Shown: positions 6,133 to 57,296 of the stretch, piece after piece
Position numbering within the stretch: position 1 is the first letter of the stretch
Layout: the number at the start of each line of letters is the position of its first letter
IMG/VR virus record: IMGVR_UViG_3300010883_000001
Location: 64,001 to 128,000 of that record
DNA length: 64,000 bases
Reading direction: 5' to 3' (one strand)
Source: a virus
Notes under the pieces: model-generated
The model's database searches: none
Told to the model about the DNA's origin: nothing
Seen by the model: only the letters and a program-made list of their open reading frames with translations
Made by a program: the position numbers and the translations under genes

Positions 6133-6197
6133 CAGTTTGTCAAGTTTCATATTTTATTTACCTTAGGGTTTAGTAAGTTTAGAAGGGTTATTAGTTT

Positions 6198-8576: not shown

Positions 8577-8620
8577 TTTATTCCGACATTCGTTTGTTAA
8601 ATTTAGACAACATTTCGATA

Positions 8621-8670
8621 ATTTCATTTCATTTCAATAATTTCATTTCAATATAATTTCATTTCATTTC
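8621..8670 (+). repeat. Imperfect (ATTTC)n pentamer array in the 5' leader
   Basis: atttcatttcatttcaataatttcatttcaatataatttcatttcatttc: 8 ATTTC units in three blocks. Confidence 0.8.
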
Positions 8671-8708
8671 GTTCTACATGTCTAAAAAAACGGAGGAATA
8701 AAAAAGAT

Positions 8709-14885: not shown

Positions 14886-14910
14886 TCAATTTAATGTTTT
14901 ATTATATAAT
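14882..14910 (+). promoter_or_regulatory. Sigma70-type promoter heading the DNA-modification operon
   Basis: TTGATC-17 nt-TATAAT; ATG only 5 nt downstream of the -10 box. Confidence 0.55.
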
Positions 14911-14915
14911 AAAAC

Positions 14916-15116
14916 ATGCAGACTTACACAACAAAACAAATAAAAGCAGCGATTGATGAAACCTTGCATAGGCATTCAACGCTACAGATTAATTTAGCAT
15001 CAAATAGAGCCAGGGAAGTTTTGGCATTAGAAATAATCCAAAAACTTAAACCTTATCTATCTCCTGCTGATCCAGCGGACGTTAGTAAGTTTTGGCCAAT
15101 GGATGAGGAGATATAG
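14916..15116 (+). CDS. Hypothetical protein
   Basis: 66-aa ORF heading the operon. Confidence 0.55.
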   Translation: MQTYTTKQIKAAIDETLHRHSTLQINLASNRAREVLALEIIQKLKPYLSPADPADVSKFWPMDEEI

Positions 15117-15118
15117 GG

Positions 15119-15904
15119 ATGCCAGAAGGACCGGAAGTAAAGTTGTGTGGTGAGCGTTTAGCTTCAAATATTTCAGGTCAAACACTTAAATATATAGAGA
15201 TAATTTCAGGAAGATATTCTAAAAAGACACCTGGCGGAATTGAATTATTTGGAAAAGAATTGCCTACAACGGTTGTAGGTCCTGGTGTTCATGGGAAATT
15301 TATATATTGGATTATGAAAAATAATTATTTTCTATATAATACCCTGGGGTTAACCGGTGCATGGTCTTTGGAACAAGGTCCTTATTCTAGGGTTAAATTT
15401 TCATTTGAGAATCTAGATATTTTTTTTGATGATAAGAGAAATTTTGGCACTCTAAAGTTTGTTAAAGGAAAAGGGAATCTTTTATCAAAATTACAATCTT
15501 TAGGGCCAGATATGCTATCAGGGGACGTTGAAATATCTCTTTTTATTGATAGGCTAAGAGAGAAGAGCTCATGGGAAATTACAAAAGCATTAATGAACCA
15601 ATCCGTGGTTGCTGGGATTGGGAATTATATAAAATCGGAGTCACTATGGAAGACAAAAATTAATCCACACTCTAGGGTTTGTGATTTAGATAACGATACT
15701 TTAGCAGATCTATGCGTTAATATTAGAGATATAATGAGTGATAGCTATAAATCTCAAAAAGAAGGTGACAACTCGTTTAAATTATCGGTATATTCTAGGA
15801 AGAATGATCCTCATGATAATGAGATTATAAAGGAAAAAACAGAGGATGGTAGAACAACATACTGGTGTCCATCCGTACAACATAAAGGGACGATAAATGA
15901 ATAG
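15119..15904 (+). CDS. Fpg/Nei family DNA glycosylase/AP lyase (zincless finger type)
   Basis: N-terminal MPEGPE, HGK, H2TH NQSVVAGIGN, C-terminal GRTTYWCP without a 4-Cys finger. Confidence 0.92.
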   Translation: MPEGPEVKLCGERLASNISGQTLKYIEIISGRYSKKTPGGIELFGKELPTTVVGPGVHGKFIYWIMKNNYFLYNTLGLTGAWSLEQGPYSRVKFSFENLDIFFDDKRNFGTLKFVKGKGNLLSKLQSLGPDMLSGDVEISLFIDRLREKSSWEITKALMNQSVVAGIGNYIKSESLWKTKINPHSRVCDLDNDTLADLCVNIRDIMSDSYKSQKEGDNSFKLSVYSRKNDPHDNEIIKEKTEDGRTTYWCPSVQHKGTINE

Positions 15905-16112
15905 TTTAAAACTTTCTGATGATACGATCGCACAAATTGCAAAAATATTGCAGGTTGCAATTCTTACTGGAACTGACGTGGTGGATAACCTTCGCCAGTT
16001 AGAGCTAGTTACTAGTGAGGACGGCCGGCTAACGATGTCTGAGGATTATGCAAAAAATTTCGAAACTAATATCACCTCGATGTTGGAGGGGATAAGCGAA
16101 GAAAATGGGTGA
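15897..16112 (+). CDS. Hypothetical protein
   Basis: Coupled 71-aa ORF. Confidence 0.6.
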   Translation: MNSLKLSDDTIAQIAKILQVAILTGTDVVDNLRQLELVTSEDGRLTMSEDYAKNFETNITSMLEGISEENG

Positions 16113-16494
16113 TAAAAAAAAGGAGGATATGCTAATCAGCATATTCAGACTACGGGAAGAATTTATGCTAAGGATTAATGAGAAAATACCTGGTGTATAT
16201 CCCCCTTGGCCAGTCGTATTATCAGACAAGGCATCACAACAATCATTAAGAGAATCTGCACTTAAGGGTGTGGAGGAAATGTTTGAAGCATTACAACACT
16301 TAAAAAACTGGAAACCACATAGGGTAACAGAAATAAAAGAATTTAATAGAGAAGAGTTTCTTGAGGAGACTGTCGACGCATTTAATTATTTCTTTTCTTT
16401 GCTTGTTATGATGGGTGTTACACCTGAAGAGTTTTTTAATGCATATGTTAAGAAAGATACTACGATTCATAGAAGGCTAGAAGTAGGTTATTAA
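16105..16494 (+). CDS. All-alpha NTP pyrophosphatase (dimeric dUTPase/dCTPase-like)
   Basis: VEEMFEAL, NWKPH and EETVDAF (ExxE...ExxD) motifs. Confidence 0.75.
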   Translation: MGDKKKEDMLISIFRLREEFMLRINEKIPGVYPPWPVVLSDKASQQSLRESALKGVEEMFEALQHLKNWKPHRVTEIKEFNREEFLEETVDAFNYFFSLLVMMGVTPEEFFNAYVKKDTTIHRRLEVGY

Positions 16495-17516
16495 TGAATA
16501 TTATCGTGACCGGTGCTGCAGGTTTTATAGGGCAAAACCTTACTAAGTGTCTATTAGATTCAGGACATAAGGTTATTGGGATCGATAATTTCTCTACAGG
16601 CGATAAAAACGTTTTTAAAGAATTCTCTTCAGAATATAAGAGCAGTTTTTTACCAATGCCTTTTGACGTAACACGAGAAGATAGTTGGAGAACCATGCTG
16701 ACTGTTGTACACAGGTTTTTTCGGGGCCAAAAGGACATATCAATATATCATCTTGCATGTCCAGCGTCTCCTCCAGCATATCAAAAATATCCTCTTCGTA
16801 CATTGGATACTTCATACTTGGGTACTAGAAACTGTTTAGAGTTTGCTGCATCTGTAAATGCAAAATTTTTATTTGCTTCTACATCGGAAGTTTACGGAAA
16901 CCCGTCTTGTAATCCGCAGTCGGAAGAATATTACGGTGATGTAAATACCGTTGGCCCCAGGGCTTGTTACGATGAAGGAAAAAGGGTCGCTGAGACTCTA
17001 TGTTATGAGTATAATAAGTGTATGGGAACTGATGTGACGATTGTTAGAATATTCAACACGTATGGTCCTGGAATGAAAGCTGATGACGGCAGAGTTGTTA
17101 GCAACTTTATAAATCAGGCAATCACAGGTAAGGAATTAACGATATATGGTGATGGCTCACAGACTCGAAGTTTTTGTTTTGTATCTGATATGGTTGATGG
17201 ATTGATTTTAGCTATGGGATCTGAGTATTTTGGGCCGATTAATTTAGGGAACCCAAATGAGATTACTGTTTCCAAGTTAACAAATATAGTATTAGAAAAA
17301 TGTAATGCACGAAATGCTATTAATTATTACCCATTACCTCAGGACGATCCATGCATCAGGAGACCCAACATAAATAAAGCTAAGTGGTTATTGGGGTGGG
17401 TACCCAAAGTTAGTCTAGATGAAGGTCTAGATAGGACGATACAATACTTTAGAGGTCTTTTACGTGTAGAACCTCAAGAACCATCATATAATTTAAAAAT
17501 TGGTTATGAAAAATGA
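16494..17516 (+). CDS. uxs: UDP-glucuronate decarboxylase (UDP-xylose synthase)
   Basis: TGAAGFIG, HLACPASP, ASTSEVYG, CYDEGKR, RIFNTYGP, DGRVVSNF, QTRSFC and DDP..RRP are diagnostic UXS motifs. Confidence 0.9.
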   Translation: MNIIVTGAAGFIGQNLTKCLLDSGHKVIGIDNFSTGDKNVFKEFSSEYKSSFLPMPFDVTREDSWRTMLTVVHRFFRGQKDISIYHLACPASPPAYQKYPLRTLDTSYLGTRNCLEFAASVNAKFLFASTSEVYGNPSCNPQSEEYYGDVNTVGPRACYDEGKRVAETLCYEYNKCMGTDVTIVRIFNTYGPGMKADDGRVVSNFINQAITGKELTIYGDGSQTRSFCFVSDMVDGLILAMGSEYFGPINLGNPNEITVSKLTNIVLEKCNARNAINYYPLPQDDPCIRRPNINKAKWLLGWVPKVSLDEGLDRTIQYFRGLLRVEPQEPSYNLKIGYEK

Positions 17517-20500
17517 AAAAAACACCCTCAAGATTCGTAGGTCTTCATGCACATTCTGGATTTTCTACATTTGATGGATTAGGATACCCTCAAGAACATA
17601 TTGATTATGTAAAATCAAATGGAATGGACTGTTGGGCACTTACTGACCATGGTCACATGAATGGTTTTGCACATGCTTATTTACATGCTGAAAAATTAAA
17701 AAAGCTTGGTGAGAATTTTAAATTTATTCCCGGGTGTGAAATGTATGTTCATCCGGATTTAGATGTATGGAGTCTAGACTACAAGCTAGCCCGGGCGGCA
17801 AAGCGAGGTGATCATGAGTCGATCACAAAACTTAGACAGCAAAGGGAGTCCATAGTAACCCCTATTCTTGCAGTAACCGATCGCGATGATGAGATTATAG
17901 ATGTTGATATAAATGAAGGAGGTATGACTGTAGAGAATGAGGAGGAGACTAAGTCTGCAAAATTTTATGATCCCGTTAAACGCCGGCATCATTTAGTTGT
18001 ACTACCTAGAACTAGTGAGGGTTTAAAACGTTTATTTTCATTGGTCTCCAAAGGTTATCTTGAGGGATTTTATAGATTTCCGCGTGTAGATTATAAGATG
18101 TTAAAAGAGGCCGCTAAAGGTGGTCATTTAATGCTTAGTACGGCATGCCTAGGAGGCCCCGTCGCATATGAAGTATTCAGGCATTTACAAGAAGTTTCAT
18201 TTAATAATCTTAATGCTTCTCTTTTAGATGATAGATCATTAATGGAGAAGACAATCCTTGGTGTTGGAAATGCATATGGATCACTGTGTGACGCAGTAGG
18301 GCGTGAGAACGTTATGCTTGAGTTACAGTTCAATAAACTCCCAGCTCAACATTTGGTGAATAGAGCTATACTTGAGTATTCTAGAAGAAACAATTTATCA
18401 GATCAATTAATAGTAACTTGCGACTCGCACTATGCAAATCCAGAACATTGGAAAGAGAGAGAATTATATAAGAAGTTAGGATGGTTAAATTATCGTGATT
18501 ATGATCCTTCTTCGTTACCACAAAGTCGCGACGATTTAGAGTGTGAATTATATCCGAAAAACGAAACACAGGTCTGGGATTCATATACAAATACATCTTC
18601 TGGGTATGATTTTTATAATGATGAAGAGATATGTAGCGCTATTGAGAGAACGCATGATATAGCACACGAAATGATAGGCGATATCACAGCCGATAAAAAA
18701 ATGAAGCTGCCGTCATATATAGTACCTCAAGGCACTGATGAAAACACGGCACTTCTAGAAGCTTGTAAAAAAGGATTAATAGAGAAGGGCTTACATGCTA
18801 ACAATGAATATATAGACCGCTTAAAGCTAGAGCTCTCTGTAATACGCAGTAAGGATTTTTCTAGATATTTTTTGACGATGAAGTCAATTCTTGATATTGC
18901 AAGAGAACGCATGTTGATAGGACCGGGTCGAGGATCCGCAGCTGGTAGTCTGGTTGCATATGTACTTGGAATAACAAACGTTGATCCTATAGAATATGGA
19001 TTATTGTTTGAAAGATTTTTATCTGTCCATCGTGAGGGCGCACCAGACATTGATACTGACGTAGGCGATAGGGATCTTCTGATTGATCTACTCAAGGCAA
19101 ATTTTGGTGATCAGAATGTTGTTCCTATTTCAAATTATAACACTTTTAAATTGAAATCATTAGTAAAAGATATATCACGTTTTTATGGTATACCCTTTGA
19201 CGAAGTAAATAAGGCACTGGCACCGGTTGAGAATGACGTAAAAAAAGTAGTCTTTACAAAGGGTACCGACAAAAACCTTTTCGTGTTATTGTATGAAGAT
19301 GCCATTGCACACTCGGCATCATTTCGAAGTTTTATTGAAAAGTATCCTGAGGTAGCTGAACCAATCGAAATTTTATTTAAGCAAAATAAGTCCTTGGGTC
19401 GACATGCTGGCGGAGTAATAATCAGTGAAAATATTCCGGAGCAGATGCCCTTGATACTCGCAAGGGGTGAGCTACAGACCCCTTGGGTCGAAGGGATGCA
19501 TTATAAACATCTGGAAGAGTTTGGGTGGATTAAATTTGATCTTCTTGGATTAGAAACCCTACGAATAATCCAACGTTGTATAGAGCTAGTTTTGAAGAGG
19601 CATGAGGGAAATGAGAACCCGACTTTTGTTGATGTGAAGAAATGGTTTGACCAAAACATGGATCCGAAAGTCATAGATTTTAATGATGAAGAAGTGTTTC
19701 GAAACATATATCATCAAGGAAAATGGGCTGGAATATTTCAGGCTACGCAACGAGGCGCACAGGCATTTTTTAAGAAAGGAAAGCCTTTGAGTATTATTGA
19801 TGTTGCTACGCTTACATCAATTTATCGCCCAGGTCCGTTAAGTGCTAATGTGCATAAGATATATTTGGGATCAAAGGACAATCCAGAAGATATAGATTAT
19901 CAACATGATCTTATTAAACAGGTTCTGGAACCGACATATGGTGCGATAATCTTTCAAGAGCAAGTTATGGAGTTATGCAACGTTGTAGCCGGTTTCCCTC
20001 AGGAAGACTGTGATAAGGTTCGTAGAACAATCATGAAGAGATCTGCGTCTAAGGCAGATGCTATGAAAGCCGAGGCTGAAGCTTTAAAGAACAGATTTGT
20101 TGAGGGTGCTGTCACAAATGGCGTGGCACAGGATGTTGCTAGCGAATTATATGAGAAAATCTTATTTTTCTCCGGATATGGTTTTAATAAATCTCATGCC
20201 GTATCTTACGCAGTTGATTCTTACTATTGCGCATGGTTGATGCACTACTATGAGGAGGAATGGCTGTGTGCTTATCTTGAGGCTATGTCAAGTACTCCGG
20301 ATAAGTTGGCAAAAGCATCTAGCGAGATTAAAAAGCTGGGATATAAGACGGTACCTCTAGACATAAATTATGCTGAAAAGACCTGGACAATATTAGACGG
20401 GAAGAAATTTATGCCATCATTCTTATCATGCAAAGGTATAGGACTAGCCGCAATCGACGAGATTATGAAAAATAGACCGTATAGCTCAGTTGATGATTTA

Positions 20501-21112
20501 CTATGGGATGAATCAGGTAAGTGGCGACATTCAAAGTTTAATAAGCGTGCGTTAGGCTCACTTATTCGTGTTTGTGCATTTGGGTCCATGGGCTTAGTTG
20601 GCGAAAGGAAGGCATTTTCTTCATATAAGCAGATGCACGAAATACTAATAGATAAAAACCAAGATATAAAAAAGTCAACAAGGAAAGATCCATGGAGAGG
20701 TAAAAAAGCAATGACTGAATTGCTGGTTGAATCAGATACTTCAAGCGAATGGACATCTTATGAGCTAGCAAAGAATAGTATTGAGCTGTTGGGATCATTT
20801 AGTTCGAAATTACTAGTGGATGACGAGTTACAAAAAGAGCTACAAAAAAGAGGCATTCACACAATTGATGAATATCACTCAAAAGACCTATATTGGTTTA
20901 TTGTAAAGAAGGCAATCCCAAAGTTGACAAAGAATAAAAAGCCGTATCTACTATTGACAATATCTGGTACTGAAGGATCGGAAAGTCGGATGTTCTACTG
21001 GGGATGGAATGGAAACACAGATATATCAGAGTTTTCAGTTTGTGTGGCAGAAATTGACAGGAGCGATTTTGGATTTTCAACTAGATCCGGAAAGATAAAG
21101 GTAATTAGATAA
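17513..21112 (+). CDS. dnaE: DNA polymerase III alpha subunit (family C)
   Basis: PHP domain (HAHSGFS.FDG, TDHG, CDSH), GRGSAAGS, FERF, PDIDTD, HAGG, KFDLLGL, RPGP, FQEQ, YGFNKSH. Confidence 0.97.
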   Translation: MKKTPSRFVGLHAHSGFSTFDGLGYPQEHIDYVKSNGMDCWALTDHGHMNGFAHAYLHAEKLKKLGENFKFIPGCEMYVHPDLDVWSLDYKLARAAKRGDHESITKLRQQRESIVTPILAVTDRDDEIIDVDINEGGMTVENEEETKSAKFYDPVKRRHHLVVLPRTSEGLKRLFSLVSKGYLEGFYRFPRVDYKMLKEAAKGGHLMLSTACLGGPVAYEVFRHLQEVSFNNLNASLLDDRSLMEKTILGVGNAYGSLCDAVGRENVMLELQFNKLPAQHLVNRAILEYSRRNNLSDQLIVTCDSHYANPEHWKERELYKKLGWLNYRDYDPSSLPQSRDDLECELYPKNETQVWDSYTNTSSGYDFYNDEEICSAIERTHDIAHEMIGDITADKKMKLPSYIVPQGTDENTALLEACKKGLIEKGLHANNEYIDRLKLELSVIRSKDFSRYFLTMKSILDIARERMLIGPGRGSAAGSLVAYVLGITNVDPIEYGLLFERFLSVHREGAPDIDTDVGDRDLLIDLLKANFGDQNVVPISNYNTFKLKSLVKDISRFYGIPFDEVNKALAPVENDVKKVVFTKGTDKNLFVLLYEDAIAHSASFRSFIEKYPEVAEPIEILFKQNKSLGRHAGGVIISENIPEQMPLILARGELQTPWVEGMHYKHLEEFGWIKFDLLGLETLRIIQRCIELVLKRHEGNENPTFVDVKKWFDQNMDPKVIDFNDEEVFRNIYHQGKWAGIFQATQRGAQAFFKKGKPLSIIDVATLTSIYRPGPLSANVHKIYLGSKDNPEDIDYQHDLIKQVLEPTYGAIIFQEQVMELCNVVAGFPQEDCDKVRRTIMKRSASKADAMKAEAEALKNRFVEGAVTNGVAQDVASELYEKILFFSGYGFNKSHAVSYAVDSYYCAWLMHYYEEEWLCAYLEAMSSTPDKLAKASSEIKKLGYKTVPLDINYAEKTWTILDGKKFMPSFLSCKGIGLAAIDEIMKNRPYSSVDDLLWDESGKWRHSKFNKRALGSLIRVCAFGSMGLVGERKAFSSYKQMHEILIDKNQDIKKSTRKDPWRGKKAMTELLVESDTSSEWTSYELAKNSIELLGSFSSKLLVDDELQKELQKRGIHTIDEYHSKDLYWFIVKKAIPKLTKNKKPYLLLTISGTEGSESRMFYWGWNGNTDISEFSVCVAEIDRSDFGFSTRSGKIKVIR

Positions 21113-22200
21113 TGCGGGTCTTAGTAGTCGGAGGAGGTATATTTGGTACCACGATAGCATCAGAACTATCAGAGCATGGAAATGATGTAACATTAATTGA
21201 AAAAGAAAATACCTTGATGACGGCAGCCAGCAGGGTAAATCATAATCGTGTTCATTTTGGCTATCACTATCCTCGTAGTCCAGAGACGGCAAGACAATGT
21301 CTAGACAGCATTCCCAGTTTTTTAATGCATTATGGTGATTCTGTAGTATCGGATTTCCCTAACTATTATACGATTGCTAATGAAGGTAGCTTCGTAACCC
21401 CGGAACAGTTTATTGATTTTTGTAAAGAGGTTAAAATTGATTTCTACGAACAATATCCACCTAAGCATCTTCTTAGAAGAGACAAGCTAGCAGCTAGCTT
21501 TAGGGTAAGAGAGCCTATTTTTAGTACCAGTCGATTAGCACAGCTAGTTAACGATCGATTAGATCGAGCAGGTGTGAACGTTCTTGTAAGGACACAAATT
21601 ACTAAGGCTAAGAAAAATCCTGGAGGTGGATACTCTGTAATGATAAATGGTGCTAGGTGTATATTTGATAAGGTTATTAATGCAACATACGCCGGCCTGA
21701 ATACTGTAAATAAGGTGTTTAATGTCCGGCCTCATGAACTACGGTTTGAGGAGACAGTAGTACCAGTATTCAAGTTCAGTCACACACCTGTTGGGCTGAC
21801 TATAATGGATGGTCCCTATTGTACTATAATGCCTCATGGAAATATTTCGGAAGAGTTTTTACTTTGGCATGTTGATGGCGGAGTTTTATCTCATGCTACT
21901 GACATTAAAAATATTCGTAGGGTTGTGTCATCTGATGAAGAGATCGCGGCTCGTATAATTGAGATGTCTGCTGAGTTTATGCCTTTTATGGAGGGCGTGG
22001 AATTTCTTTCATTGATGAAAACAGTAAAGACTGTCTATGAGAATAAGTATGATGCAAGAATGTCTGAGGTTCATACGTACGACGACAGTCCGGACTTTAT
22101 CTCAGTATTATCTGGGAAGATAATGTGTGCACCTCAGATTTCATATCAGGTTCGAGAATTAGTTAGGGGTAAGAAGTATCACAGGAGTATTTTGGTATGA
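21112..22200 (+). CDS. FAD-dependent oxidoreductase (DAO-like family)
   Basis: VVGGGIFG dinucleotide-binding motif, ASRVNHNRVHFGYHYPRS, VINATY, IMDGP. Confidence 0.8.
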   Translation: MRVLVVGGGIFGTTIASELSEHGNDVTLIEKENTLMTAASRVNHNRVHFGYHYPRSPETARQCLDSIPSFLMHYGDSVVSDFPNYYTIANEGSFVTPEQFIDFCKEVKIDFYEQYPPKHLLRRDKLAASFRVREPIFSTSRLAQLVNDRLDRAGVNVLVRTQITKAKKNPGGGYSVMINGARCIFDKVINATYAGLNTVNKVFNVRPHELRFEETVVPVFKFSHTPVGLTIMDGPYCTIMPHGNISEEFLLWHVDGGVLSHATDIKNIRRVVSSDEEIAARIIEMSAEFMPFMEGVEFLSLMKTVKTVYENKYDARMSEVHTYDDSPDFISVLSGKIMCAPQISYQVRELVRGKKYHRSILV

Positions 22201-22862
22201 TAAAGAATATACTAATTTTTGGTGCATCTGGTTATGTGGCACGTCATTTTAGCGAAAAATATTTTAATCATTATAATATTATTCACTTTGCTAGAGAAGA
22301 TTTTGATTTTTTGAGACCTGATTTTGAAAAATTGGTTGAAAATTTAATCGAGAAACTTCAACATTTACGGCAACCACGACATGGCGGCGTAGATGGGATT
22401 GTGTTTTTGCAAGGAATTAACCCCTCATTTGGAGTAAGTGACATAGATGATAATCAGTTTCATGATATGTTAAGTATAAATTTATCAGTACCACTTCAGG
22501 TTATTAGGCAAATTAAAGACTGGATTAATAAAAGTGCATCAATCACATTTATATCATCCATTGCAAGAAAGAAAGGGAGTTATGATCCGAGCTATGCTTC
22601 TGCAAAAGCGGGGCTGGTTGGACTTCAGCAGGCTTTGTCAAATCATTTTTCTGATATTCGTTTTAATACGATATCACTCGGGTTGGTTGGGGGATCCCCT
22701 GTTCACGAGGGAATGACAGATGATTTTGCCCTTAAACATCTAGATGCCATGGGAGGAAAATTGGTAAAAGTTGATGATGTTTGTAAAGCTATAGGTTTTT
22801 TGATAGAATGTGATAGTATTTCTCGCGCGATTATTCCAATTGATAGAGGGTTTAAGTTATGA
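22197..22862 (+). CDS. Short-chain dehydrogenase/reductase
   Basis: IFGASG, ISS (catalytic Ser), YASAK (YxxxK), C-terminal IDRG. Confidence 0.85.
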   Translation: MIKNILIFGASGYVARHFSEKYFNHYNIIHFAREDFDFLRPDFEKLVENLIEKLQHLRQPRHGGVDGIVFLQGINPSFGVSDIDDNQFHDMLSINLSVPLQVIRQIKDWINKSASITFISSIARKKGSYDPSYASAKAGLVGLQQALSNHFSDIRFNTISLGLVGGSPVHEGMTDDFALKHLDAMGGKLVKVDDVCKAIGFLIECDSISRAIIPIDRGFKL

Positions 22863-23389
22863 GTGATCAAAAGATCATAATCTTTGATGGTCCGGACGGG
22901 TGTGGAAAGACAAATATCGCAGCTGCGTTGTCAAGACTTCTAGATATTCCCGTTTTTAAGAATGAATTTGAATGGGATCATTTTAATCTTGGCTCAAGTA
23001 ATGATTATTTTATTAAAGCAATAGAATATCAGCACCCCTACGTGTTATCTTTCTTAAAGCAAACCAGACATTCAGCAATATTTGATAGGGCTCATCCTTC
23101 TGAGTTTGCATACTCCCGCGTATTTGAGAGAACAACAAGTTGGAGGGCTTTAAAGATGTGTGATGATATGAGTGCTGAAATGTCTGTAAAAATAATTATT
23201 CCCTATCGCACAAATTATGAAAATGTCGATGATGAGTTTGGGGTAAATCCCATAAAGCTAGTAGAGATTGAATCCGAGTATAGAGCATTTGCTAAGTGGA
23301 CCAAGTGTGATGTAATGTGGTTAAATGTTGATGATGAAGATTTAGATAGGGAAATTAAGGAAATCGTTGATTTTTTGGAGATGGTATAA
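22859..23389 (+). CDS. dNMP/thymidylate kinase-like P-loop kinase
   Basis: FDGPDGCGKT Walker A; FDR motif. Confidence 0.85.
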   Translation: MSDQKIIIFDGPDGCGKTNIAAALSRLLDIPVFKNEFEWDHFNLGSSNDYFIKAIEYQHPYVLSFLKQTRHSAIFDRAHPSEFAYSRVFERTTSWRALKMCDDMSAEMSVKIIIPYRTNYENVDDEFGVNPIKLVEIESEYRAFAKWTKCDVMWLNVDDEDLDREIKEIVDFLEMV

Positions 23390-24420
23390 TGAGGGTACTG
23401 TTTAGTTATTGGGGATTTTGTGAGAGCTTTGAAGACTGTAACGAACCGAATACACCTGATGGATCTAGATTCACTAGACCGATGTTTGTTAATGCACTTA
23501 CGATTGCAGGGCACCAGGTAACATCTCTACAAAAAAGAAGAGAGAAAAATGAGTACCCCGGGATTACATATGATCCAGTTGGTTTACCTGATGGTGATAT
23601 TTTATTTATTGAGTGGCGCTGGAAGACGTGGAAAAATTTTGGTGATACTAAATTTGAGAATGATTATGACAGGCAAATCGAATTATTGCAACACTATCAT
23701 GGAGAGGTACCCGTCGTAATATGGGACTGTGATATGAAATTGACGTCTGAGGATGAGAATAGGTGGCCTGAGGCTATCATTGCTGACCCTACAATGGACC
23801 CTAAGCAACTTACCAGAAAGAGGGCTAGGTTACCATTTTCATCAGATCTGAAATTTTTAGTTGAGCCGTATGAAGACCCGGTTAGGTATGGGTATATCGG
23901 GAACAATTACGAGCGAGATGAGATGTTTGAAAAATATTATAATTGTCCCGCAAAATCTCTTAGGCCGGAAGGAATTCAAACATCAGTTTTTGGAAACTGG
24001 CTTCTGCGATCTCCGGAGAGAATGTCTCCTGAACATGTAACGAAGAAATTTCGTAATATTGCGTTTATTGATAGGGTTGGGTTTACTGAATCCATGCAGC
24101 AGTTGAGAAAATTCATATGTACTACACATATCACAAAGCCAGAGTATGCAAAGAGGGGATTTGTCTCGCCTAGGTATCTTGAGAATATAGCAACATGTAC
24201 TCCTTCATTGGTACCTTGTGAGTTTATGATGAATAATATTTTAGGAAATAATTGGATGGCATCAAGCTCAGGCAGTGTTGTCAAGGCTGTAAGATATTTG
24301 AGATGTCTTTTACCAGAAGATCGTGCTGCGGTTGTTGATGAGCAAAGGTATAATTTGAGAAATAACCTGAATGTTGATGTTAAGCAAACAGTTGAGTTTT
24401 TAGAGGGTTTGATAAAATGA
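23389..24420 (+). CDS. GT-B glycosyltransferase, putative DNA/nucleotide-base modifying
   Basis: N-terminal NALTIAGHQVTSL, DILFIEWRW and VVIWDCD; C-terminal YIGNNYER and SPRYLE (R-x-x-E) resemble GT-B donor-binding domains; operon context. Confidence 0.65.
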   Translation: MRVLFSYWGFCESFEDCNEPNTPDGSRFTRPMFVNALTIAGHQVTSLQKRREKNEYPGITYDPVGLPDGDILFIEWRWKTWKNFGDTKFENDYDRQIELLQHYHGEVPVVIWDCDMKLTSEDENRWPEAIIADPTMDPKQLTRKRARLPFSSDLKFLVEPYEDPVRYGYIGNNYERDEMFEKYYNCPAKSLRPEGIQTSVFGNWLLRSPERMSPEHVTKKFRNIAFIDRVGFTESMQQLRKFICTTHITKPEYAKRGFVSPRYLENIATCTPSLVPCEFMMNNILGNNWMASSSGSVVKAVRYLRCLLPEDRAAVVDEQRYNLRNNLNVDVKQTVEFLEGLIK

Positions 24421-25412
24421 AAAAATCAGTATTAATTACTGGAGGTTGTGGCTTTATAGGGGGCAATCTTGTAAAAGCACTATACAATAAGGGATGGGTT
24501 GTTGATGTTGTTGATCACAGTGTAGAGATAGATCCGGATATATTTTCCCATGATGGAAAAAATGTGACGAGAATTTGTCCGGCTGCGTTAATGCCAGCGT
24601 TACAAAAAAGGGATAGAGAAGACAAAATATTAGTAATAACGTCTGATTTTACTGACGAAAATATTTTGAAGAAAATTTCTAATAAAAAATATGATATAGT
24701 TTTTCATATGGCCGCTGAACCCCGAGTGGGGTTTAGTGTTAAAGATCCTGTCTTTACAACTGAAGAGAACTTGTTTAAGACAGTTGTGTTGTTTAAGGCC
24801 TGTGCTGATGCTGGTACAAAGGTTGTATTTTCCTCCTCATCAGCAGTTTACGGAAATGCTGATCAACTACCCACCAGCGAAGATTGCAAAAAGAAACCAG
24901 CATCCCCATATGCATTGCAGAAGTTACATGCGGAGGATTACGCAAGGTTATTTAGCGACTTGTATGACTTAGATGTTGTATGTCTGAGGTATTTTAACGT
25001 ATTTGGCCCCGGGGCTCTAGGCAGTTCTCCTTACGCAACGGCAGTTGCTGCATGGTGCCAGGCAATATATGATGGAAACACATTACGAAGTGATGGTGAC
25101 GGAGAGCAAACGCGGGATCTTGTTTATGTGGATGATATTGTAAGAATTAATATTGCCCTAGGGAAAAGTGCTAAAAACTTTAAAGGCGATTGTTATAATG
25201 TTTGTACCGGTAAGTCATATAGCAATAATTACGTATTATCTAGGTTTAGGGAAAAATTTTCTAATTTAGAGATCGTTTCTGCTCCTGCTCGTATTGGAGA
25301 CGTTAAACATACTTTAGGTGATACCAGTAAGGCAACAAATGATCTTGGATTTGAGGTTGTACATGATTTCGATGATGCTTTAAAGGCAACATGGGCATGG
25401 TGGGGATTTTAG
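24417..25412 (+). CDS. NAD-dependent NDP-sugar 4-epimerase/dehydratase
   Basis: ITGGCGFIG, HMAA, SSSAVYG, YALQK, LRYFNVFGP, GDGEQTRD. Confidence 0.9.
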   Translation: MKKSVLITGGCGFIGGNLVKALYNKGWVVDVVDHSVEIDPDIFSHDGKNVTRICPAALMPALQKRDREDKILVITSDFTDENILKKISNKKYDIVFHMAAEPRVGFSVKDPVFTTEENLFKTVVLFKACADAGTKVVFSSSSAVYGNADQLPTSEDCKKKPASPYALQKLHAEDYARLFSDLYDLDVVCLRYFNVFGPGALGSSPYATAVAAWCQAIYDGNTLRSDGDGEQTRDLVYVDDIVRINIALGKSAKNFKGDCYNVCTGKSYSNNYVLSRFREKFSNLEIVSAPARIGDVKHTLGDTSKATNDLGFEVVHDFDDALKATWAWWGF

Positions 25413-25422
25413 GGGAAAAAAA

Positions 25423-26412
25423 TTGCATATTGTCTCTCATTCGTTTAACGACTGCTATAATCAGTTGGCGAAATATTTGTTAACAAGCGGGGAATATGAT
25501 GTATCCCCTAGAGGCCAGAGGGTTAGAGAATCTTTATGCGTAAGTTTTAAGATTGAAAACCCTAGGGATAGACTAATCTATAATCCGGCGAGAAAATTTT
25601 CTTTCACATATGTTATAGCGGAGATGCTTTGGTATATTTCTGGAAATAATAAAACGTCGTGGATATCTCATTATTCTAAATTTTGGAATAAAATATCTGA
25701 TGATGGTAAGACGGCCAACTCTGCATATGGTGCTAGGATATTTGAGAAAAATGAAAGAATCGCAGGATCCCAATTTATTCAGTGGGATTTTATAAAGGAG
25801 GAGTTAAGAAAAGATCCGGATTCTAGAAGGGCAATAATTCATATCCGCGTTCCGGAGGATTCTATAAAGGCAAAGCTTGATGTCCCCTGTACAATATCAA
25901 TACAATACTTTATAAGATCTGAAAAATTACATTGCATAGTCAATATGAGATCTTCTGACTTAATTTTAGGGATAAGCTACGATATTCCTGCGTTCACATT
26001 TATGCAGGAGATGATGGCAAATGAATTGGGGGTTGATGTAGGCTCTTATATGCATGTCAGTAATTCATTGCATGTATACGAGAGACATTTTGATATGCTA
26101 GAAAAGATAGCATCAACAGAAAATATTAATAAGTCTTATTCATTAAGTTCAGGAGCTAGAAAACTTAAATTACCACAGGGTGATCTACCCATATATAGTT
26201 TAATGCAGTTTGAGGACGCTATGCGAAAAACCACCCATAATAAAACCGCATTAGATTTATTAGATTCATCGATTTGTTTATTCGATGATTATTGGAATGA
26301 TTGGCTACGAGCGCTAGCAGCGCATAGGGTTCTTAAAAATGGTGATAAACATCTTCACGATAATATATTATATAGGTGTGATCGCTTGAGGGGGTGTTAT
26401 GAGAGATCCTGA
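25423..26412 (+). CDS. Thymidylate-synthase homologue of dCMP-modifying type (dCMP hydroxymethylase-like)
   Basis: SAYG, DSRRA, PCT (Cys156), RSSDLILGISYD (Asp187), SLHVYERH; Asp where ThyA has Asn177. Confidence 0.85.
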   Translation: MHIVSHSFNDCYNQLAKYLLTSGEYDVSPRGQRVRESLCVSFKIENPRDRLIYNPARKFSFTYVIAEMLWYISGNNKTSWISHYSKFWNKISDDGKTANSAYGARIFEKNERIAGSQFIQWDFIKEELRKDPDSRRAIIHIRVPEDSIKAKLDVPCTISIQYFIRSEKLHCIVNMRSSDLILGISYDIPAFTFMQEMMANELGVDVGSYMHVSNSLHVYERHFDMLEKIASTENINKSYSLSSGARKLKLPQGDLPIYSLMQFEDAMRKTTHNKTALDLLDSSICLFDDYWNDWLRALAAHRVLKNGDKHLHDNILYRCDRLRGCYERS

Positions 26413-26992
26413 GTTTATAATTTTTACTGGACCAATGTTCGGTTCAAAAACTACTAGAATGCTAGCATGTGTAGACAGGTATAGATACCAGCATAAACTT
26501 ATTGCAGTATTTAAACCAAAGATAGATGATAGATACGAGACTGATAAAATTAAAACACATTCAGGTTTGTCTATACAGGCGCACTGCGTCGAGTCAGGTT
26601 ACGAGATTGCTGATATTATAACTAAAATTGAGCTAGCGTCACTTAAGAGAGTTGACGTGATTGCCGTTGATGAAGCTTTTATGATTGAAGGATGCTCGTC
26701 GACGCTAATTCAATTGTTTAAAACAGGATACACAATCGTAATTGCGTCGATACAATTATCGGCCACCGGCGAGCCATTTAATGAAATTAAAGATATTCTG
26801 CCATGGGGGACAAGAGTTGAGGTTTGTCCAGCAGTATGTTCTAGGACTGGCGAAGATGCATATTATACATTTAGAAAAGTTGAATGTTTGGATAGCATTA
26901 TGATTGGAGGTTCTGATATGTATGAGGCCAGGTGTTGGTCAAGTCATCCTGGACTGAATTCCTTGGAGAAATTAAATGATAGAGCCATCTAG
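26399..26992 (+). CDS. tdk: Thymidine kinase
   Basis: GPMFGSKT, KPKIDDRY, THSG, VDEAF, IGGSDMYEARC. Confidence 0.88.
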   Translation: MRDPEFIIFTGPMFGSKTTRMLACVDRYRYQHKLIAVFKPKIDDRYETDKIKTHSGLSIQAHCVESGYEIADIITKIELASLKRVDVIAVDEAFMIEGCSSTLIQLFKTGYTIVIASIQLSATGEPFNEIKDILPWGTRVEVCPAVCSRTGEDAYYTFRKVECLDSIMIGGSDMYEARCWSSHPGLNSLEKLNDRAI

Positions 26993-27830
26993 CGTTGATT
27001 GCGTAATATATCATGCTGACTGTACTGACGGCTTTGGGGCAGCCTACGCAGCATGGAAACTTTTAGGAAACAAGGCAGATTATTATGCGTGTAAGCATGG
27101 CTCAGTCCCACCAGATGTATCGGGTAAAAGAGTTGTAATTCTAGATTTTTCTTTTAATAATGAGATTACAAAAGCAATGATTGACACAGCGGATGGTTTG
27201 ATAGTCATTGATCATCATAAGTCGGCCATGGTAGAATTGCATGATATTACGGATGCTATATTCAATATGAGTAAATCTGGAGCCATGCTAGCATGGGAAT
27301 TTTTTCATCCGGGAAAAGAGCCACCAAAGTTTATTTCGTACATAGAGGATCGTGATCTGTGGAAGTGGGAGTTACCATATTCAAAAGAGTTCGCTGCAGC
27401 TTTTGATATGGTTCCTTTCGAGTTTGAAGAGTTTGAGAAGTTTGAAGATGACTCTGTTTTTGATGATGCTGTAAAACGAGGAAGTTACATACTGGCGTAT
27501 TCAAAAACGGTAGTTAAAAAAGTCTCTGAGAAGGCATCACCAAGAAGATTAAACGGAAAGAGCATATTGGTCGTAAATGCTTCACATTGGATGTCGGAAA
27601 TAGGCGCCAGGCTTTCTCCCGATTGTGATGTTGCAATGATCTGGTATTATGATCATATTGATAAAATGATAAAGGTTAGCTTAAGATCTTTTCATGACAC
27701 CGTTGATGTCTCCGAGGTCGCAAAGAAATTTGGCGGAGGTGGGCATAAAAAGGCTGCTGGTTTTATACTTCCTGGAGATGCTGTCGTGGATGATATTTTT
27801 GACGATGAGGTTAAGAATGAAGAAGTTTAG
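26976..27830 (+). CDS. DHH/DHHA1 phosphoesterase
   Basis: YHADCTDG, LDF, IDHH, EDRDLW, SLRS, GGGGHKKAAG. Confidence 0.9.
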   Translation: MIEPSSVDCVIYHADCTDGFGAAYAAWKLLGNKADYYACKHGSVPPDVSGKRVVILDFSFNNEITKAMIDTADGLIVIDHHKSAMVELHDITDAIFNMSKSGAMLAWEFFHPGKEPPKFISYIEDRDLWKWELPYSKEFAAAFDMVPFEFEEFEKFEDDSVFDDAVKRGSYILAYSKTVVKKVSEKASPRRLNGKSILVVNASHWMSEIGARLSPDCDVAMIWYYDHIDKMIKVSLRSFHDTVDVSEVAKKFGGGGHKKAAGFILPGDAVVDDIFDDEVKNEEV

Positions 27831-28239
27831 GCCTGGATGGGATGCGATTTGGCTTAAGTTTGCGCATCTAATATCTGAGAGAAGTTATGATGATCGGTAC
27901 AAGGTAGGTGCCATTGTAGTTTCGATCGACAATACACAGGTTCTTGCAGTGGGATATAATGGAAATTATTCTGGTGGTCCAAATGAAGCAGACTCAGCTG
28001 AACCAGGCAAATCAGGATTTATTCATGCTGAGATTAATGCATTACTTAAGTGCGACTATAATTATCACAAAGTTAAAAAACTATATGTTACACTATCACC
28101 GTGCATGATGTGTGCTAAGGCCATTATTAATGCCGGAATCTCAGAGGTGATTTATGATGATGAGTATAGAGATACGGCCGGAATTCAGCTTATGAAGGAT
28201 ACAGGAATTGTCGTTAGGAGAGTAAACAATTATTCTTGA
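27817..28239 (+). CDS. dCMP deaminase
   Basis: VGA, GYNG, HAEINA, PCMMC zinc motifs; start moved to MKKFRPGWD. Confidence 0.9.
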   Translation: MKKFRPGWDAIWLKFAHLISERSYDDRYKVGAIVVSIDNTQVLAVGYNGNYSGGPNEADSAEPGKSGFIHAEINALLKCDYNYHKVKKLYVTLSPCMMCAKAIINAGISEVIYDDEYRDTAGIQLMKDTGIVVRRVNNYS

Positions 28240-56074: not shown

Positions 56075-56566
56075 ATGACTAAGAAAGAAGATGGGACGGT
56101 TGTTGGTTTTACGTGTGGATCTTTTGATTTGATGCATGCAGGGCATGTTCTTATGTTCGAAGAGTGTAAAAAATATTGTGATAAGCTCGTAGTTGGTGTA
56201 CAATCAGATCCATCAGCTGACAGGCCTGAGTCAAAGAATACACCCATCCAGACTTTTGTCGAGAGAATTTTGCTAGTAAAGTCAGTGAGATGGATTGATG
56301 ACGTTATACTTTATCATACCGAGGAAGATCTTTATAGAATATTAGAGGAATTGAAACCCAGCGTTAGGATAATTGGCGAAGACTGGAGGGATAAAGAGTA
56401 TACAGGTCATAATTTACCTATTGATGTTATTTTTAATTCTAGATCCCATACATACTCAACTAGCGAATTGAGGGAAAGGGTTTATGATAGAGAAAAAAAG
56501 AAAAAAGATAAAGAGAAAAATGTAGGTCTATCTCATGGTACCGGTTTACCTACAGGAAGCGATTAG
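56075..56566 (+). CDS. HxGH cytidylyltransferase (TagD/RfaE-like)
   Basis: CGSFDLMHAGH, LVVGVQSD, ER, GEDW, STSELR. Confidence 0.88.
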   Translation: MTKKEDGTVVGFTCGSFDLMHAGHVLMFEECKKYCDKLVVGVQSDPSADRPESKNTPIQTFVERILLVKSVRWIDDVILYHTEEDLYRILEELKPSVRIIGEDWRDKEYTGHNLPIDVIFNSRSHTYSTSELRERVYDREKKKKDKEKNVGLSHGTGLPTGSD

Positions 56567-56570
56567 TTTT

Positions 56571-57296
56571 ATGAAAATAGATGATGCCGCCGAAGTGAAC
56601 CGGCAATACTTATATCACGATAATGATGGATTTGTTGAATATGTCCAACACATGGGTGATGATGCCACAATCGTTAATGCAGCCAGGGTTTCTTTTGGTA
56701 AACAGGTGGCTGAGTTATCTAATAAAGACAAAAAATTGATTAAATACCTTGTAGCGCATAAGCATACGTCTACTTTAGAACATAATGTTTTAACAATGCG
56801 GTTTAGGGTACCCTTGTTTGTTGCGCGGCAACATATGAGGCATCGTACTTGGAGTTTTAATGAAATTTCTCGTAGATATACAAGCATTGATATGTCAATG
56901 TACGAGCCAGACATGTTCAGGGTTCAACATTCTCAGAATAGACAGGCATCCGAAGATGATGGGTTGATTAATCCCTTATGCGTGTCGACAACAGCATATG
57001 ATATTGGGATATCCGGCTCAGCGTCAAGTCTAGTAAAGAGACACCACAAATCATCAATGTTACTGTATGAGTCTTTAATGCAAGCCGGTGTTTGTAGGGA
57101 ACAGGCCCGCGGAGTTCTACCTCAAAATATGTATACAGAATATTTGGGAACAGTCAATCTAAATAATCTGATCAAATTTATACATTTGCGTATCCATGAG
57201 GGTGCACAGTGGGAGATAAGAAGGGTTGCTGAGTCTTGTTACCATATAGCTAGCTCTTTGTGGCCGGATGTTATGAAATGTGCGGTGAAAAATTAA
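56571..57296 (+). CDS. thyX: Flavin-dependent thymidylate synthase
   Basis: AARVSF, HTSTLEH, ARQHMRHR..SFNEISRRY, EQARGVLP, AQWEIR. Confidence 0.95.
   Translation: MKIDDAAEVNRQYLYHDNDGFVEYVQHMGDDATIVNAARVSFGKQVAELSNKDKKLIKYLVAHKHTSTLEHNVLTMRFRVPLFVARQHMRHRTWSFNEISRRYTSIDMSMYEPDMFRVQHSQNRQASEDDGLINPLCVSTTAYDIGISGSASSLVKRHHKSSMLLYESLMQAGVCREQARGVLPQNMYTEYLGTVNLNNLIKFIHLRIHEGAQWEIRRVAESCYHIASSLWPDVMKCAVKN

Follow-up and report, generated by a model that had tools for sequence, protein, structure and literature searches.

A phage gene cluster predicted to glycosylate 5-hydroxymethylcytosine in DNA, with a putative UDP-glucuronate-derived pentose donor

The window analysed here is a stretch of 64,000 nucleotides, positions 64,001 to 128,000 of the IMG/VR record IMGVR_UViG_3300010883_000001 (about 145 kb, 52% complete), part of the genome of a large marine phage that belongs to a cosmopolitan group of marine jumbo phages. 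Between positions 14916 and 28239 every open reading frame lies on the plus strand, and neighbouring frames touch or share 1–17 nucleotides, with the exception of a 10-nucleotide gap upstream of the ThyA homologue (Table 1). All 13 gene assignments that a preliminary description had made in this run came out again in searches by profile, PDB or fold, with the frames at the positions given there, save that the dCMP deaminase more likely starts at the in-frame ATG at 27817 than at 27694: the 140-amino-acid product, with a 14-nucleotide overlap, fits the 139-amino-acid orthologue in the related locus L003. The description had also taken these genes for one translationally coupled run. Scanning the run for promoters and terminators gave no signal above chance, and a promoter-like site at 14882–14910, before the first frame, did not exceed chance either; the operon claim is therefore based on the tight packing of the genes and on their linkage conserved in relatives.

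Table 1. Genes of the packed run and the separate thymidylate synthase gene, in window positions.
Feature	Position	Strand	Evidence
66-aa ORF, first of packed run	14916..15116	+	Function unassigned; no Pfam match
Fpg/Nei-family DNA glycosylase	15119..15904	+	Pfam Fapy_DNA_glyco, H2TH and C-terminal domain, all over cut-off
Conserved 71-aa protein, function unassigned	15897..16112	+	No Pfam or PHROG match
All-alpha (MazG/dUTPase_2-like) NTP pyrophosphatase, candidate dCTPase	16105..16494	+	PHROG 12184, 4e-16
UDP-glucuronate decarboxylase (UDP-xylose synthase, UXS)	16494..17516	+	Human UXS1 4gll/2b69
Family C DNA polymerase (DnaE-like)	17513..21112	+	Pfam PHP, DNA_pol3_alpha, finger, HHH_6
DAO-superfamily FAD oxidoreductase, candidate sugar-tailoring oxidase	21112..22200	+	Pfam DAO, 7.7e-21
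Classical SDR, partner of FAD enzyme	22197..22862	+	Pfam adh_short_C2
Tmk/YorR-like P-loop nucleotide kinase, candidate hm-dCMP kinase	22859..23389	+	PHROG 761 thymidylate kinase, 4e-9
GT-B glycosyltransferase (GT), candidate DNA (hmC) glycosyltransferase	23389..24420	+	343 aa, unannotated; predicted fold
GalE-family NDP-sugar 4-epimerase	24417..25412	+	Pfam Epimerase, 1.7e-47
ThyA-superfamily enzyme, Asp-type, predicted dCMP 5-hydroxymethylase	25423..26412	+	Pfam Thymidylat_synt, 3.7e-34
Thymidine kinase (TK)	26399..26992	+	Pfam TK, 9e-33
DHH/DHHA1 phosphoesterase (NrnA/RecJ-like)	26976..27830	+	PHROG 4771, 8e-76; Pfam DHHA1
dCMP deaminase	27817..28239	+	Pfam dCMP_cyt_deam_1, 4e-19
ThyX (phage dTMP synthase), outside cluster	56535..57296	+	PF02511, 1.3e-48, G000 120643-121266

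The active site of the ThyA homologue was read with published residue rules (PMC13326640, PMC5175136). In the alignment the enzyme carries L143D, C146, R166, S167, D169, N177D, R126 and W80; of these, N177D, L143D, C146, D169, R126 and S167 make up a signature that T4 gp42 dCMP hydroxymethylase also has, and they were found in 50 of 50 family members. The phage has a separate ThyX that covers dTMP, so that a second thymidylate synthase would be redundant. These results support the earlier claim of a C5-modified cytosine made by an Asp-type ThyA homologue, with residues of both the cytosine type and the hydroxymethyl type, and from the sequence this enzyme very probably makes hm-dC. It is highly improbable that it forms another C5 group, be it 5-hydroxy-dCMP as in RB69 and DLP3 or 5-methyl-dCMP as in XP12-type phages. 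Among PDB entries it matches MilA (5b6d, 4e-41) best, as do the 5hoC synthases, and the architecture of the module resembles that of 5hoC systems. However, all tested 5hoC synthases have Asn at position 169 (PMC13326640; D169N as a diagnostic mark is a recent, empirical rule), and RB69 gp48 has N169, E143 and A80, whereas D169 and the folate-stacking W80 are retained here. The absence of D169N thus predicts a hydroxymethyl rather than a hydroxy product. Against a methyl product, Asp at 143 correlates with hydroxymethyl, not methyl, products (PMC13326640), and a methyl group offers no acceptor to a GT that is always linked. The preliminary description had left the choice between pentosyl-hmdC and pentosyl-OH-dC open; the kept D169 favours the former and disfavours the latter.

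Several neighbouring products fit into nucleotide metabolism. The pyrophosphatase shares 32% identity over 76 amino acids with T4 gp56 dCTPase (E 7e-7) and matches Pfam dUTPase_2 at 1.2e-4, 0.1 bit short of the cut-off. The gene upstream of the GT may encode a Tmk-like P-loop kinase, a weak assignment drawn from PHROG 761 (4e-9) and a PDB match to YorR (2axp, 0.009); the product is 29% identical to RB69 gp45. The DHH phosphoesterase, 43–81% identical (mostly 67–81%) among the relatives having the gene, probably acts in nucleotide salvage.

The comparison with relatives covered 49 related IMG/VR loci; a search for a cultured relative of the phage found none. Every locus that reaches far enough has GT, kinase and ThyA homologue in a span of about 5 kb, and this linkage persists through at least seven gene orders. 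The kinase adjoins the GT in all loci except one short one. The GalE-like epimerase and DnaE accompany the three genes in nearly all loci despite the shuffled gene order, DnaE (46–82% identity) being less than 10 kb away in nearly all relatives. The co-occurrence of sugar genes with the ThyA homologue, on which the preliminary description had staked its reading beforehand, was thus found for the GT and, in nearly all loci, for the epimerase. Some of the relatives also keep the Fpg/Nei gene upstream of these genes.

The predicted structure of the GT is a confident GT-B fold whose top structural match by Z is T4 beta-glucosyltransferase (BGT), with T4 AGT also among the matches. We consider it likely that this enzyme glycosylates DNA. 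The alternative, that the ThyA homologue makes hm-dC while the GT acts on protein, lipid or a small molecule and the linkage reflects co-expression of an early or replication module only, appears improbable to us. It draws on the fact that no sequence homology to known DNA glycosyltransferases, BGT and AGT included, was detected, and that the non-DNA GT-B enzymes BshA (3mbo, among the top fold matches), TarM and PimA score within 1–2 Z units of T4 BGT. Nevertheless, the adjacency of GT, kinase and ThyA homologue survives many rearrangements, kinase-GT-ThyA modules of similar arrangement have been verified by experiment, and the family was not found among 185,579 prokaryote species genomes. The GT founds a new family, the members seen here coming from metagenomes and viral contigs only.

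Donor-sugar genes are more variable. UXS matches human UXS1 (4gll) over its full length (E 3.5e-94) and is 51% identical to a UXS gene of Sinorhizobium meliloti pSymB. The FAD enzyme (AF2 pLDDT 92.9) has GlpD (2qcu) and glycine oxidase as top Foldseek matches, and the SDR is 41–44% identical to that of DAO-MT-SDR-GT2 blocks in bacterial polysaccharide loci. Orthologues of the two are paired in phage loci, in Bacteroidota glycan loci and in bacterial loci of the O-antigen type, the last of which points to sugar tailoring. Most relatives, two near-complete records (92% and 84%) among them, lack UXS, FAD oxidoreductase and SDR, and many relatives have UDP-galactopyranose mutase in place of UXS; these three genes are lineage-specific accessories, not core. 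The claim of a pentose is therefore limited to the sub-lineage of the window. Within that limit the earlier proposal of a UDP-GlcA-derived pentose is based on the recurrence of UXS, whose orthologues (46–65% identity) adjoin the module in six independent loci (L003, L028, L055, L060, L075 and L076). UXS, DAO and SDR form a block in L075 and L076, with DnaE intervening in the window and in L003; UXS adjoins the GT in L055 and lies 1 kb from it in L060; in L028 a UXS-GLF block places UXS and the pyranose mutase immediately upstream of kinase and GT. The 145-kb record (52% complete) yielded no UDP-glucose dehydrogenase, so that UDP-GlcA would have to be supplied by the host or by the missing half.

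The preliminary description had considered a step from UDP-xylose to UDP-L-arabinose by a 4-epimerase. The epimerase of the cluster matches TIGR01179 galE (6e-43, under the cut-off) and PDB 6dnt (1e-46), and is 28% identical to UDP-xylose 4-epimerase and likewise 28% to GalE. It retains S124/Y149/K153, and its gatekeeper Y299 is replaced by Thr in the window and in 45 of 45 orthologues, whether or not UXS accompanies them; this small residue is also compatible with HexNAc substrates. These features do not support assigning the enzyme to UDP-Xyl/UDP-L-Ara.

These same data bear on which sugar is attached. A UXS-derived pentose is our tentative choice, at somewhat below an even chance. We regard as rather unlikely that hm-dC receives a hexose or HexNAc epimer (Gal, GalNAc), as presumably in the relatives without UXS, while UXS, DAO and SDR act for some other target, for instance the glycans of the host envelope, or provide just a minor second sugar. 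Such a division would agree with a core of GT and epimerase from which UXS is mostly missing, with the invariant epimerase active site, with the O-antigen-type homologues of DAO and SDR, and with the single glycosyltransferase found in 145 kb; but UXS repeatedly adjoins the GT or the DAO-SDR-kinase-GT genes in differing gene orders, in L028 together with the mutase, and a search of the record for envelope-glycan machinery (GT2, GT1) came up empty.

Taken as a whole, we read the cluster (probability roughly 0.6) as a T4-type pre-replicative cytosine replacement followed by DNA glycosylation, with a donor cassette that may give a UDP-GlcA-derived pentose. The gp56-like pyrophosphatase and the DHH phosphoesterase would supply dCMP, which the ThyA homologue would convert to 5-hydroxymethyl-dCMP with methylene-tetrahydrofolate. 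The Tmk-like kinase would phosphorylate hm-dCMP, host NDK would finish the triphosphate and the phage DnaE would insert it into DNA, while dCMP deaminase, ThyX and TK would keep up the supply of dTTP. After replication the GT would move a sugar from a UDP-sugar onto the hydroxymethyl group. The donor would come from the variable cassette next to the GT, in which the 4-epimerase is nearly constant and to which lineages would have added UDP-galactopyranose mutase, a second SDR-type enzyme, a Gfo/Idh/MocA enzyme with an SDR, or UXS with DAO-SDR. In the window, UXS would turn host UDP-GlcA into UDP-xylose, possibly followed by epimerization to UDP-L-arabinose and possibly by FAD-dependent oxidation and SDR reduction to a keto or epimeric pentose, the product being placed on hmC. 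If true, this pentose would be a new form of a known anti-restriction strategy.

The novelty first claimed for this system was too strong. Pentosyl-cytosine DNA has been published for RB69, DLP3 and Thanatos (PMC13326640, PMC12838424), and kinase-GT-ThyA modules and GT-epimerase pairs acting on 5hmC are likewise in print (PMC13326640, bioRxiv 10.1101/2023.12.21.572611), all from 2023–2026. With the T4 5hmC pathway (gp56 dCTPase, gp42, gp1 kinase, alpha- and beta-glucosyltransferases, cd, td) the cluster shares the gp42 signature, a gp56 homologue, dCMP deaminase with a separate dTMP synthase, and the BGT-like fold. It differs in the sequence of the GT, in a hydroxymethylase of MilA length with a C-terminal extension of roughly 100 amino acids, in the Tmk/YorR-like kinase, in a family C rather than family B polymerase, and in encoding donor enzymes (epimerase, UXS, DAO, SDR), whereas T4 uses host UDP-glucose. 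The glycosylated 5-hydroxycytosine systems of RB69, DLP3 and RL38J1 (PMC13326640) also have an adjacent nucleotide kinase, GT-B and MilA-like ThyA homologue with phage-encoded donor genes; RL38J1, like many relatives of the window, carries UDP-galactopyranose mutase, and DLP3 gp76/77 share BshA 3mbo as a top fold match. In contrast, their ThyA homologues carry D169N and are only 28% identical to that of the window, the kinase match is weak, and their pentose route runs from ribulose-5-P to D-arabinofuranose, where that of the window would run through UDP-GlcA decarboxylation (xylose/L-arabinose). Shewanella phage Thanatos (PMC12838424), also marine/aquatic, combines a pentose on cytosine with a ThyA homologue, dCTPase and dCMP deaminase, but it is T4-like, its D169N-type enzyme makes 5hoC, and it relies on a sugar-1-P pyrophosphorylase instead of UXS for the donor.

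In phage C5-methyltransferase/TET clusters, GTs acting on 5hmC need partner epimerases, which are encoded adjacent, as in the window, and supply the donor, and GT-B enzymes often lie near ThyS; there, however, 5hmC is formed post-replicatively by methyltransferase and dioxygenase, and the products named are Hex, HexNAc, HexA and heptose, with pentose and xylose unmentioned (bioRxiv 10.1101/2023.12.21.572611). According to PMC6024577, citing Gu et al. (2011), a Uxs-Uxe-glycosyltransferase operon of S. meliloti makes UDP-xylose and UDP-L-arabinose; it similarly groups UXS, a GalE-family epimerase and a GT, but serves glycans, not DNA, and its Uxe is only 28% identical to the window epimerase, no closer than E. 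coli GalE. Thomas et al. (2018) had named this route as one by which phages might, hypothetically, obtain UDP-arabinose. Finally, the 71-amino-acid protein is conserved at 35–59% identity across about 30 related loci and lies immediately upstream of the pyrophosphatase gene in every relative where it was detected.

The window is bases 64001-128000 of a linear IMG/VR virus record of 145,181 bp, 52% complete by CheckV estimate, with almost all of its genes on the + strand. Since its relatives are marine contigs (mostly Tara) of 180-288 kb, this record represents about half the genome of a marine jumbo phage that has not been cultured. Neither megablast of the 12-kb cluster nor tblastn of its glycosyltransferase (GT) against 50,697 deposited phage records retrieved a close relative, the latter giving no match, and DnaE matches in deposited phage records did not exceed about 30% identity. 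The cluster comprises 15 ORFs on the + strand, whose neighbours abut or overlap by 1-17 nt apart from a single 10-nt gap. A scan for promoters and terminators gave nothing exceeding shuffled expectation.

Profile, structure-database or homologue searches reproduced all functional labels of the preliminary description. Pfam confirmed Nei/Fpg, DnaE, thymidine kinase (TK), the DHH protein, dCMP deaminase, the DAO-type FAD enzyme, a classical SDR and two extended SDRs; for the deaminase, the label held but the start did not, ATG 27817 being the most likely one instead of 27694. The all-alpha pyrophosphatase (129 aa) matched a phage nucleotide-pyrophosphohydrolase PHROG and the C-terminal half of T4 gp56 dCTPase (32% identity, E 7e-7). 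The kinase label was weak but consistent, with matches to the thymidylate kinase PHROG (4e-9), YorR (0.009) and RB69 gp45 (29% identity).

The window proteins were mapped onto 49 IMG/VR loci and six ENA/JGI loci from related contigs (L-numbers hereafter). In every locus reaching far enough, the genes for the GT, the kinase and the ThyA homologue (TS) lay within about 5 kb of one another; the GalE-like epimerase (Epi) joined this module in nearly all loci and DnaE adjoined it in almost all. Gene order varied by lineage (kinase-GT-Epi-TS; TS-GLF-GT-kinase-Epi; GT-kinase-TS-Epi; kinase-GT-SDRe-...-Epi-TS; and further variants, GLF being UDP-galactopyranose mutase), and the persistence of linkage despite such heavy rearrangement argues for functional coupling of the GT, the kinase and the ThyA homologue. 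The same kinase-GT-ThyA arrangement is found in the experimentally studied phages RB69, DLP3 and RL38J1. The expected co-occurrence of sugar genes with the ThyA homologue was thus borne out for the GT and largely for the epimerase, but UDP-glucuronate decarboxylase (UXS) and the other sugar genes are not part of the core.

We aligned the window ThyA homologue with E. coli ThyA, T4 gp42, Aeromonas phage 31 gp42, RB69 gp48 and SP-10 dUMP hydroxymethylase, and, in a second alignment leaving out Aeromonas phage 31 gp42, with the four other references and 49 added family members. The catalytic residue C146, the phosphate/deoxyribose ligands R126, R166, S167, H207 and Y209, and W80 (E. coli numbering) were present in all 50 family proteins, window included, as were Asp at 177 in place of Asn177 and Asp at 143 in place of Leu143. 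Asp177 confers cytosine specificity, and an acidic residue replacing Leu143 is associated with water access and a hydroxymethyl instead of a methyl product (PMC13326640). The product of RB69 gp48, of DLP3 gp80 and of other homologues put to the test is 5-hydroxy-dCMP, and D169N has been proposed as the diagnostic residue of 5-hydroxy-dCMP synthases (Lee et al., 2026; PMC13326640). The window protein does not fit a 5-hydroxy-dCMP synthase of this type, as the signature Asn169 is absent: Asp169 is kept in the window protein and all 49 relatives, the same alignment showing Asn in RB69 gp48. This RB69 protein carries N169, E143 and A80, whereas the window family agrees with T4 gp42.

The best PDB match of the ThyA homologue was the CMP hydroxymethylase MilA (E 4e-41, C-terminal extension included), which owes its ribose preference to A176 and K133; the window protein has Ser (S167) and Arg (R126) at these two positions. 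This matches the deoxyribose-preferring state defined by MilA A176S/K133R. The window also holds a complete gene for ThyX, the flavin-dependent thymidylate synthase, which would cover dTMP synthesis and make the ThyA homologue redundant for it. Together, the active-site residues and ThyX lead us to predict 5-hydroxymethyl-dCMP as the product, and not 5-hydroxy-dCMP, 5-methyl-dCMP or dTMP. If so, the occurrence of D169 and N169 in otherwise similar modules would provide a clean natural test of the recent signature separating 5-hydroxymethyl from 5-hydroxy synthases.

The GT is predicted to adopt the two-Rossmann GT-B fold. Its sequence had no match in Pfam, NCBIfam, PHROG or PDB, the last giving only chance matches to chlorophyll-binding proteins, and searching the T4 and RB69 regions that encode BGT, AGT and gp46:47 with an HMM of the family gave no match. 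A pattern-based scan of limited sensitivity confirmed no member in 185,579 prokaryote species genomes, and 197 homologues, typically of 50-57% identity, were recovered among 5.8 billion metagenomic proteins. No extra GT1 or GT2 genes were found within the 145-kb record. The putative acceptor of the GT, 5-hydroxymethylcytosine (5hmC) in DNA, is deduced solely from the constant linkage of this gene to those of the ThyA homologue and the kinase.

Regarding the sugar donor, the first extended SDR matched human UXS1 over its full length with 318 bits (E 3.5e-94; next family 125 bits) and S. meliloti Uxs with 51% identity, and reached no equivalog cut-off in NCBIfam; judged by these matches, it is a true UDP-glucuronate decarboxylase. 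Orthologues (46-65% identity) were restricted to the window, L003, L028, L055, L060, L075 and L076. The order was UXS-DAO-SDR-kinase-GT in L075 and L076, with DnaE between UXS and DAO in the window and L003; L028 showed UXS-GLF-kinase-GT, L055 UXS-GT, and in L060 UXS preceded the GT by about 1 kb. The proposal that the pentose comes from UDP-glucuronate is hence favoured by the firm UXS label and by the proximity of UXS to the module wherever it is present, but weakened by its confinement to these seven loci, and no UXS was found anywhere in the records of relatives estimated to be 92% and 84% complete. UDP-glucose dehydrogenase (Ugd) was not found in the window record or in the UXS-bearing relatives, though in records that are all incomplete this is no sign of its absence; UDP-glucuronate would have to be supplied by the host or by the half of the genome that is missing. 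In G001, the 84% complete record of L025 that lacks UXS, a gene of the UDP-glucose/GDP-mannose dehydrogenase family lies about 90 kb from the modification module.

Other loci carry different sugar genes. About 20 have a true UDP-galactopyranose mutase (Pfam GLF 1e-77) with the gene of the ThyA homologue, or UXS, on one side and that of the GT or the kinase on the other; about 13 have a second extended SDR, and one has a Gfo/Idh/MocA oxidoreductase together with a relative of the window SDR.

The PDB matches of the epimerase were 4-epimerases, and its features are those of a GalE-family extended SDR. The triad S124/Y149/K153 together with N179, R231 and R292 was conserved in the 46 aligned members, window included, with Thr for S124 in two of them. 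The gatekeeper position (Y299 in E. coli) is Thr, a small and permissive residue, in the window protein as in each of the 45 orthologues compared, whether or not UXS accompanies them. Identity is 28% to S. meliloti Uxe and likewise 28% to E. coli GalE, so that sequence does not show whether the epimerase acts on UDP-Xyl/UDP-L-Ara. In established sugar-nucleotide chemistry, UDP-xylose relates to UDP-glucose as UDP-L-arabinose does to UDP-galactose. By this parallel, adding UXS to the epimerase, with or without the mutase, and the GT would make a route to galactose one to L-arabinose, and L028, with UXS, GLF and GT, looks exactly like such a conversion. A Uxs/Uxe route has been put forward as a hypothetical way for phages to obtain UDP-arabinose (Thomas et al., 2018), and S. 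meliloti has a Uxs-Uxe-GT operon (Gu et al., 2011, as cited in PMC6024577).

The FAD enzyme belongs to the DAO superfamily, and its predicted model (pLDDT 92.9) was nearest to the folds of glycerol-3-phosphate dehydrogenase (GlpD) and glycine/sarcosine oxidases. A divergent UDP-galactopyranose mutase was considered and rejected, the protein having a DAO fold without the GLF domain PF03275; in L028 and relatives of the L033 type, GLF genes proper stand at the corresponding position. Over 1,900 homologues were found, and a feature-database search returned generic DAO clusters only. Orthologues with 41-45% identity occur inside polysaccharide loci of a Mucilaginibacter genome and a 121-kb metagenomic contig, both in the order Wzt, DAO, methyltransferase, SDR, GT2, and the SDR of these loci is 41-44% identical to that of the window. 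This pairing in bacterial polysaccharide loci marks DAO and SDR as a conserved glycan-biosynthesis cassette, and in phages the pair travels with UXS. We propose, as the weakest step of the model, that they might carry out a two-step oxidation-reduction of a sugar hydroxyl yielding a keto-sugar or an epimer, similar in logic to the non-homologous DprE1/DprE2. The Mucilaginibacter orthologues are also a hint that the phage host may be a member of the Bacteroidota. The two polysaccharide loci, L067 and L068, carry the DAO-methyltransferase-SDR-GT2 block beside Wzm/Wzt ABC transporter genes, itself an uncharacterised glycan-tailoring cassette. L074 lacks an epimerase, and no UXS was seen in the 1.4 kb remaining upstream; the DAO-SDR pair may work there without either enzyme, or the contig may be cut.

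In the proposed pathway, the gp56-like enzyme would hydrolyse dCTP or dCDP to dCMP, to which the DHH phosphoesterase would probably contribute by salvage; the ThyA homologue would hydroxymethylate dCMP, the Tmk-like kinase and host NDK would phosphorylate the product, and DnaE would incorporate it, dTTP being maintained by dCMP deaminase, ThyX and TK. The GT-B enzyme would then glycosylate 5hmC in DNA, in the window lineage with a pentose made by way of UXS, either xylose or L-arabinose or a form altered by DAO and SDR. We give a probability of roughly one in three (0.35) to the full reading, in which these marine jumbo phages carry 5-(pentosyloxymethyl)cytosine, a base not seen before, its sugar being made from host UDP-glucuronate by phage UXS and a two-enzyme oxidation-reduction (epimerisation or keto-sugar) step of the FAD oxidase and the SDR, and installed by a new, virus-only GT-B family, with sister lineages swapping the cassette to form galactofuranosyl- or L-arabinofuranosyl-5hmC. 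The observations of the preliminary description were confirmed, and its interpretation, cytosine replaced by a pentosylated C5-modified base, was supported only in part.

T4 is the paradigm for glycosylated 5hmC formed by way of a ThyA homologue. Among the hypermodifying phages that have been characterised, we know of none whose polymerase belongs to family C. Phage M6 of Pseudomonas, which hypermodifies its DNA, was considered as a DnaE-bearing precedent and discarded, its 664-aa polymerase being annotated as DNA polymerase only. Pentosylated cytosine DNA is already known from RB69, DLP3 and related phages as arabinosyl-5-hydroxycytosine (PMC13326640) and from Thanatos (PMC12838424). Pairs of a GT and a partner epimerase install Hex, HexNAc and HexA on 5hmC, and GT-B enzymes often lie near ThyS, with no pentose in that work (Pyle et al., 2023; bioRxiv 10.1101/2023.12.21.572611). 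The literature searched, whose incomplete coverage gives no proof of priority, contained no UXS route to a DNA sugar, no pentosyl- or galactofuranosyl-5hmC (as opposed to 5-hydroxycytosine), no mention of the window GT family or of a DAO and SDR tailoring pair, and, for marine jumbo phages, no link to a family C polymerase. If the reading is true, glycosylated hydroxymethylcytosine would reach beyond T-even coliphages to abundant uncultured ocean jumbo phages with this polymerase, and UDP-glucuronate decarboxylation would be a third pentose route to DNA, besides Ru5P-derived arabinose and sugar-1-P pyrophosphorylase routes. The GT would represent a family new among DNA glycosyltransferases, one whose donor cassettes can be swapped, and enzymes of this kind are useful in 5hmC labelling chemistry. 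They also matter for how marine phages escape restriction and CRISPR, and for the question why viromes may under-recover or mis-basecall genomes like these.

Positions of features in the window and in related records
Sequence	Positions	Feature
Window	669-11921 and 28343-30646	Very large ORFs (1231, 446, 724, 1070 and 767 aa)
Window	14916-28239	Modification cluster
Window	40311-49441	Host-like gene block
Window	40311-41213	FEN-type 5'-3' exonuclease
Window	41433-43085	GroEL
Window	45051-45767	Peptide deformylase
Window	45770-46801	DnaJ, full-length
Window	47626-48423	TilS-like PP-loop ATPase
Window	48413-49441	GMP reductase/IMPDH-family enzyme
Window	56535-57296	ThyX
L003	1304-1747	HhH-GPD glycosylase
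L006	2511-2945	HhH-GPD glycosylase
L017	8180-9463	ORF with intein splicing domain, then DnaE finger and HHH_6 parts
L060	6551-7927	GNAT-Thg1 (tRNA-His guanylyltransferase-like) fusion protein, upstream of UXS
L060	13338-14150	TnsA-like/NUMOD3 homing-endonuclease-like gene, between GT and kinase
L067	7001-9278	DAO-methyltransferase-SDR-GT2 block
L068	6336-8645	DAO-methyltransferase-SDR-GT2 block
L074	4967-9262	DnaE-DAO-SDR-kinase-GT-TS
G001	142015-142482	UDP-glucose/GDP-mannose dehydrogenase-family gene

Some further features were noted around the cluster and in its relatives. The very large ORFs had no Pfam match; that of 767 aa had no PHROG match either and is also found downstream of the cluster in L003. 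A GMP reductase homologue, present in the host-like block of the window, adjoins the modification module of several related loci (L028, L055). DnaE seems to be interrupted in L017 and the L018-L026 group, and in this clade DnaE matches begin at shifted positions. The HhH-GPD glycosylase of L003 and L006 is encoded directly upstream of Nei, where the window instead has a 66-aa ORF; a pair of DNA glycosylases encoded next to base-modification genes might serve to excise pyrimidines that are unmodified or damaged.
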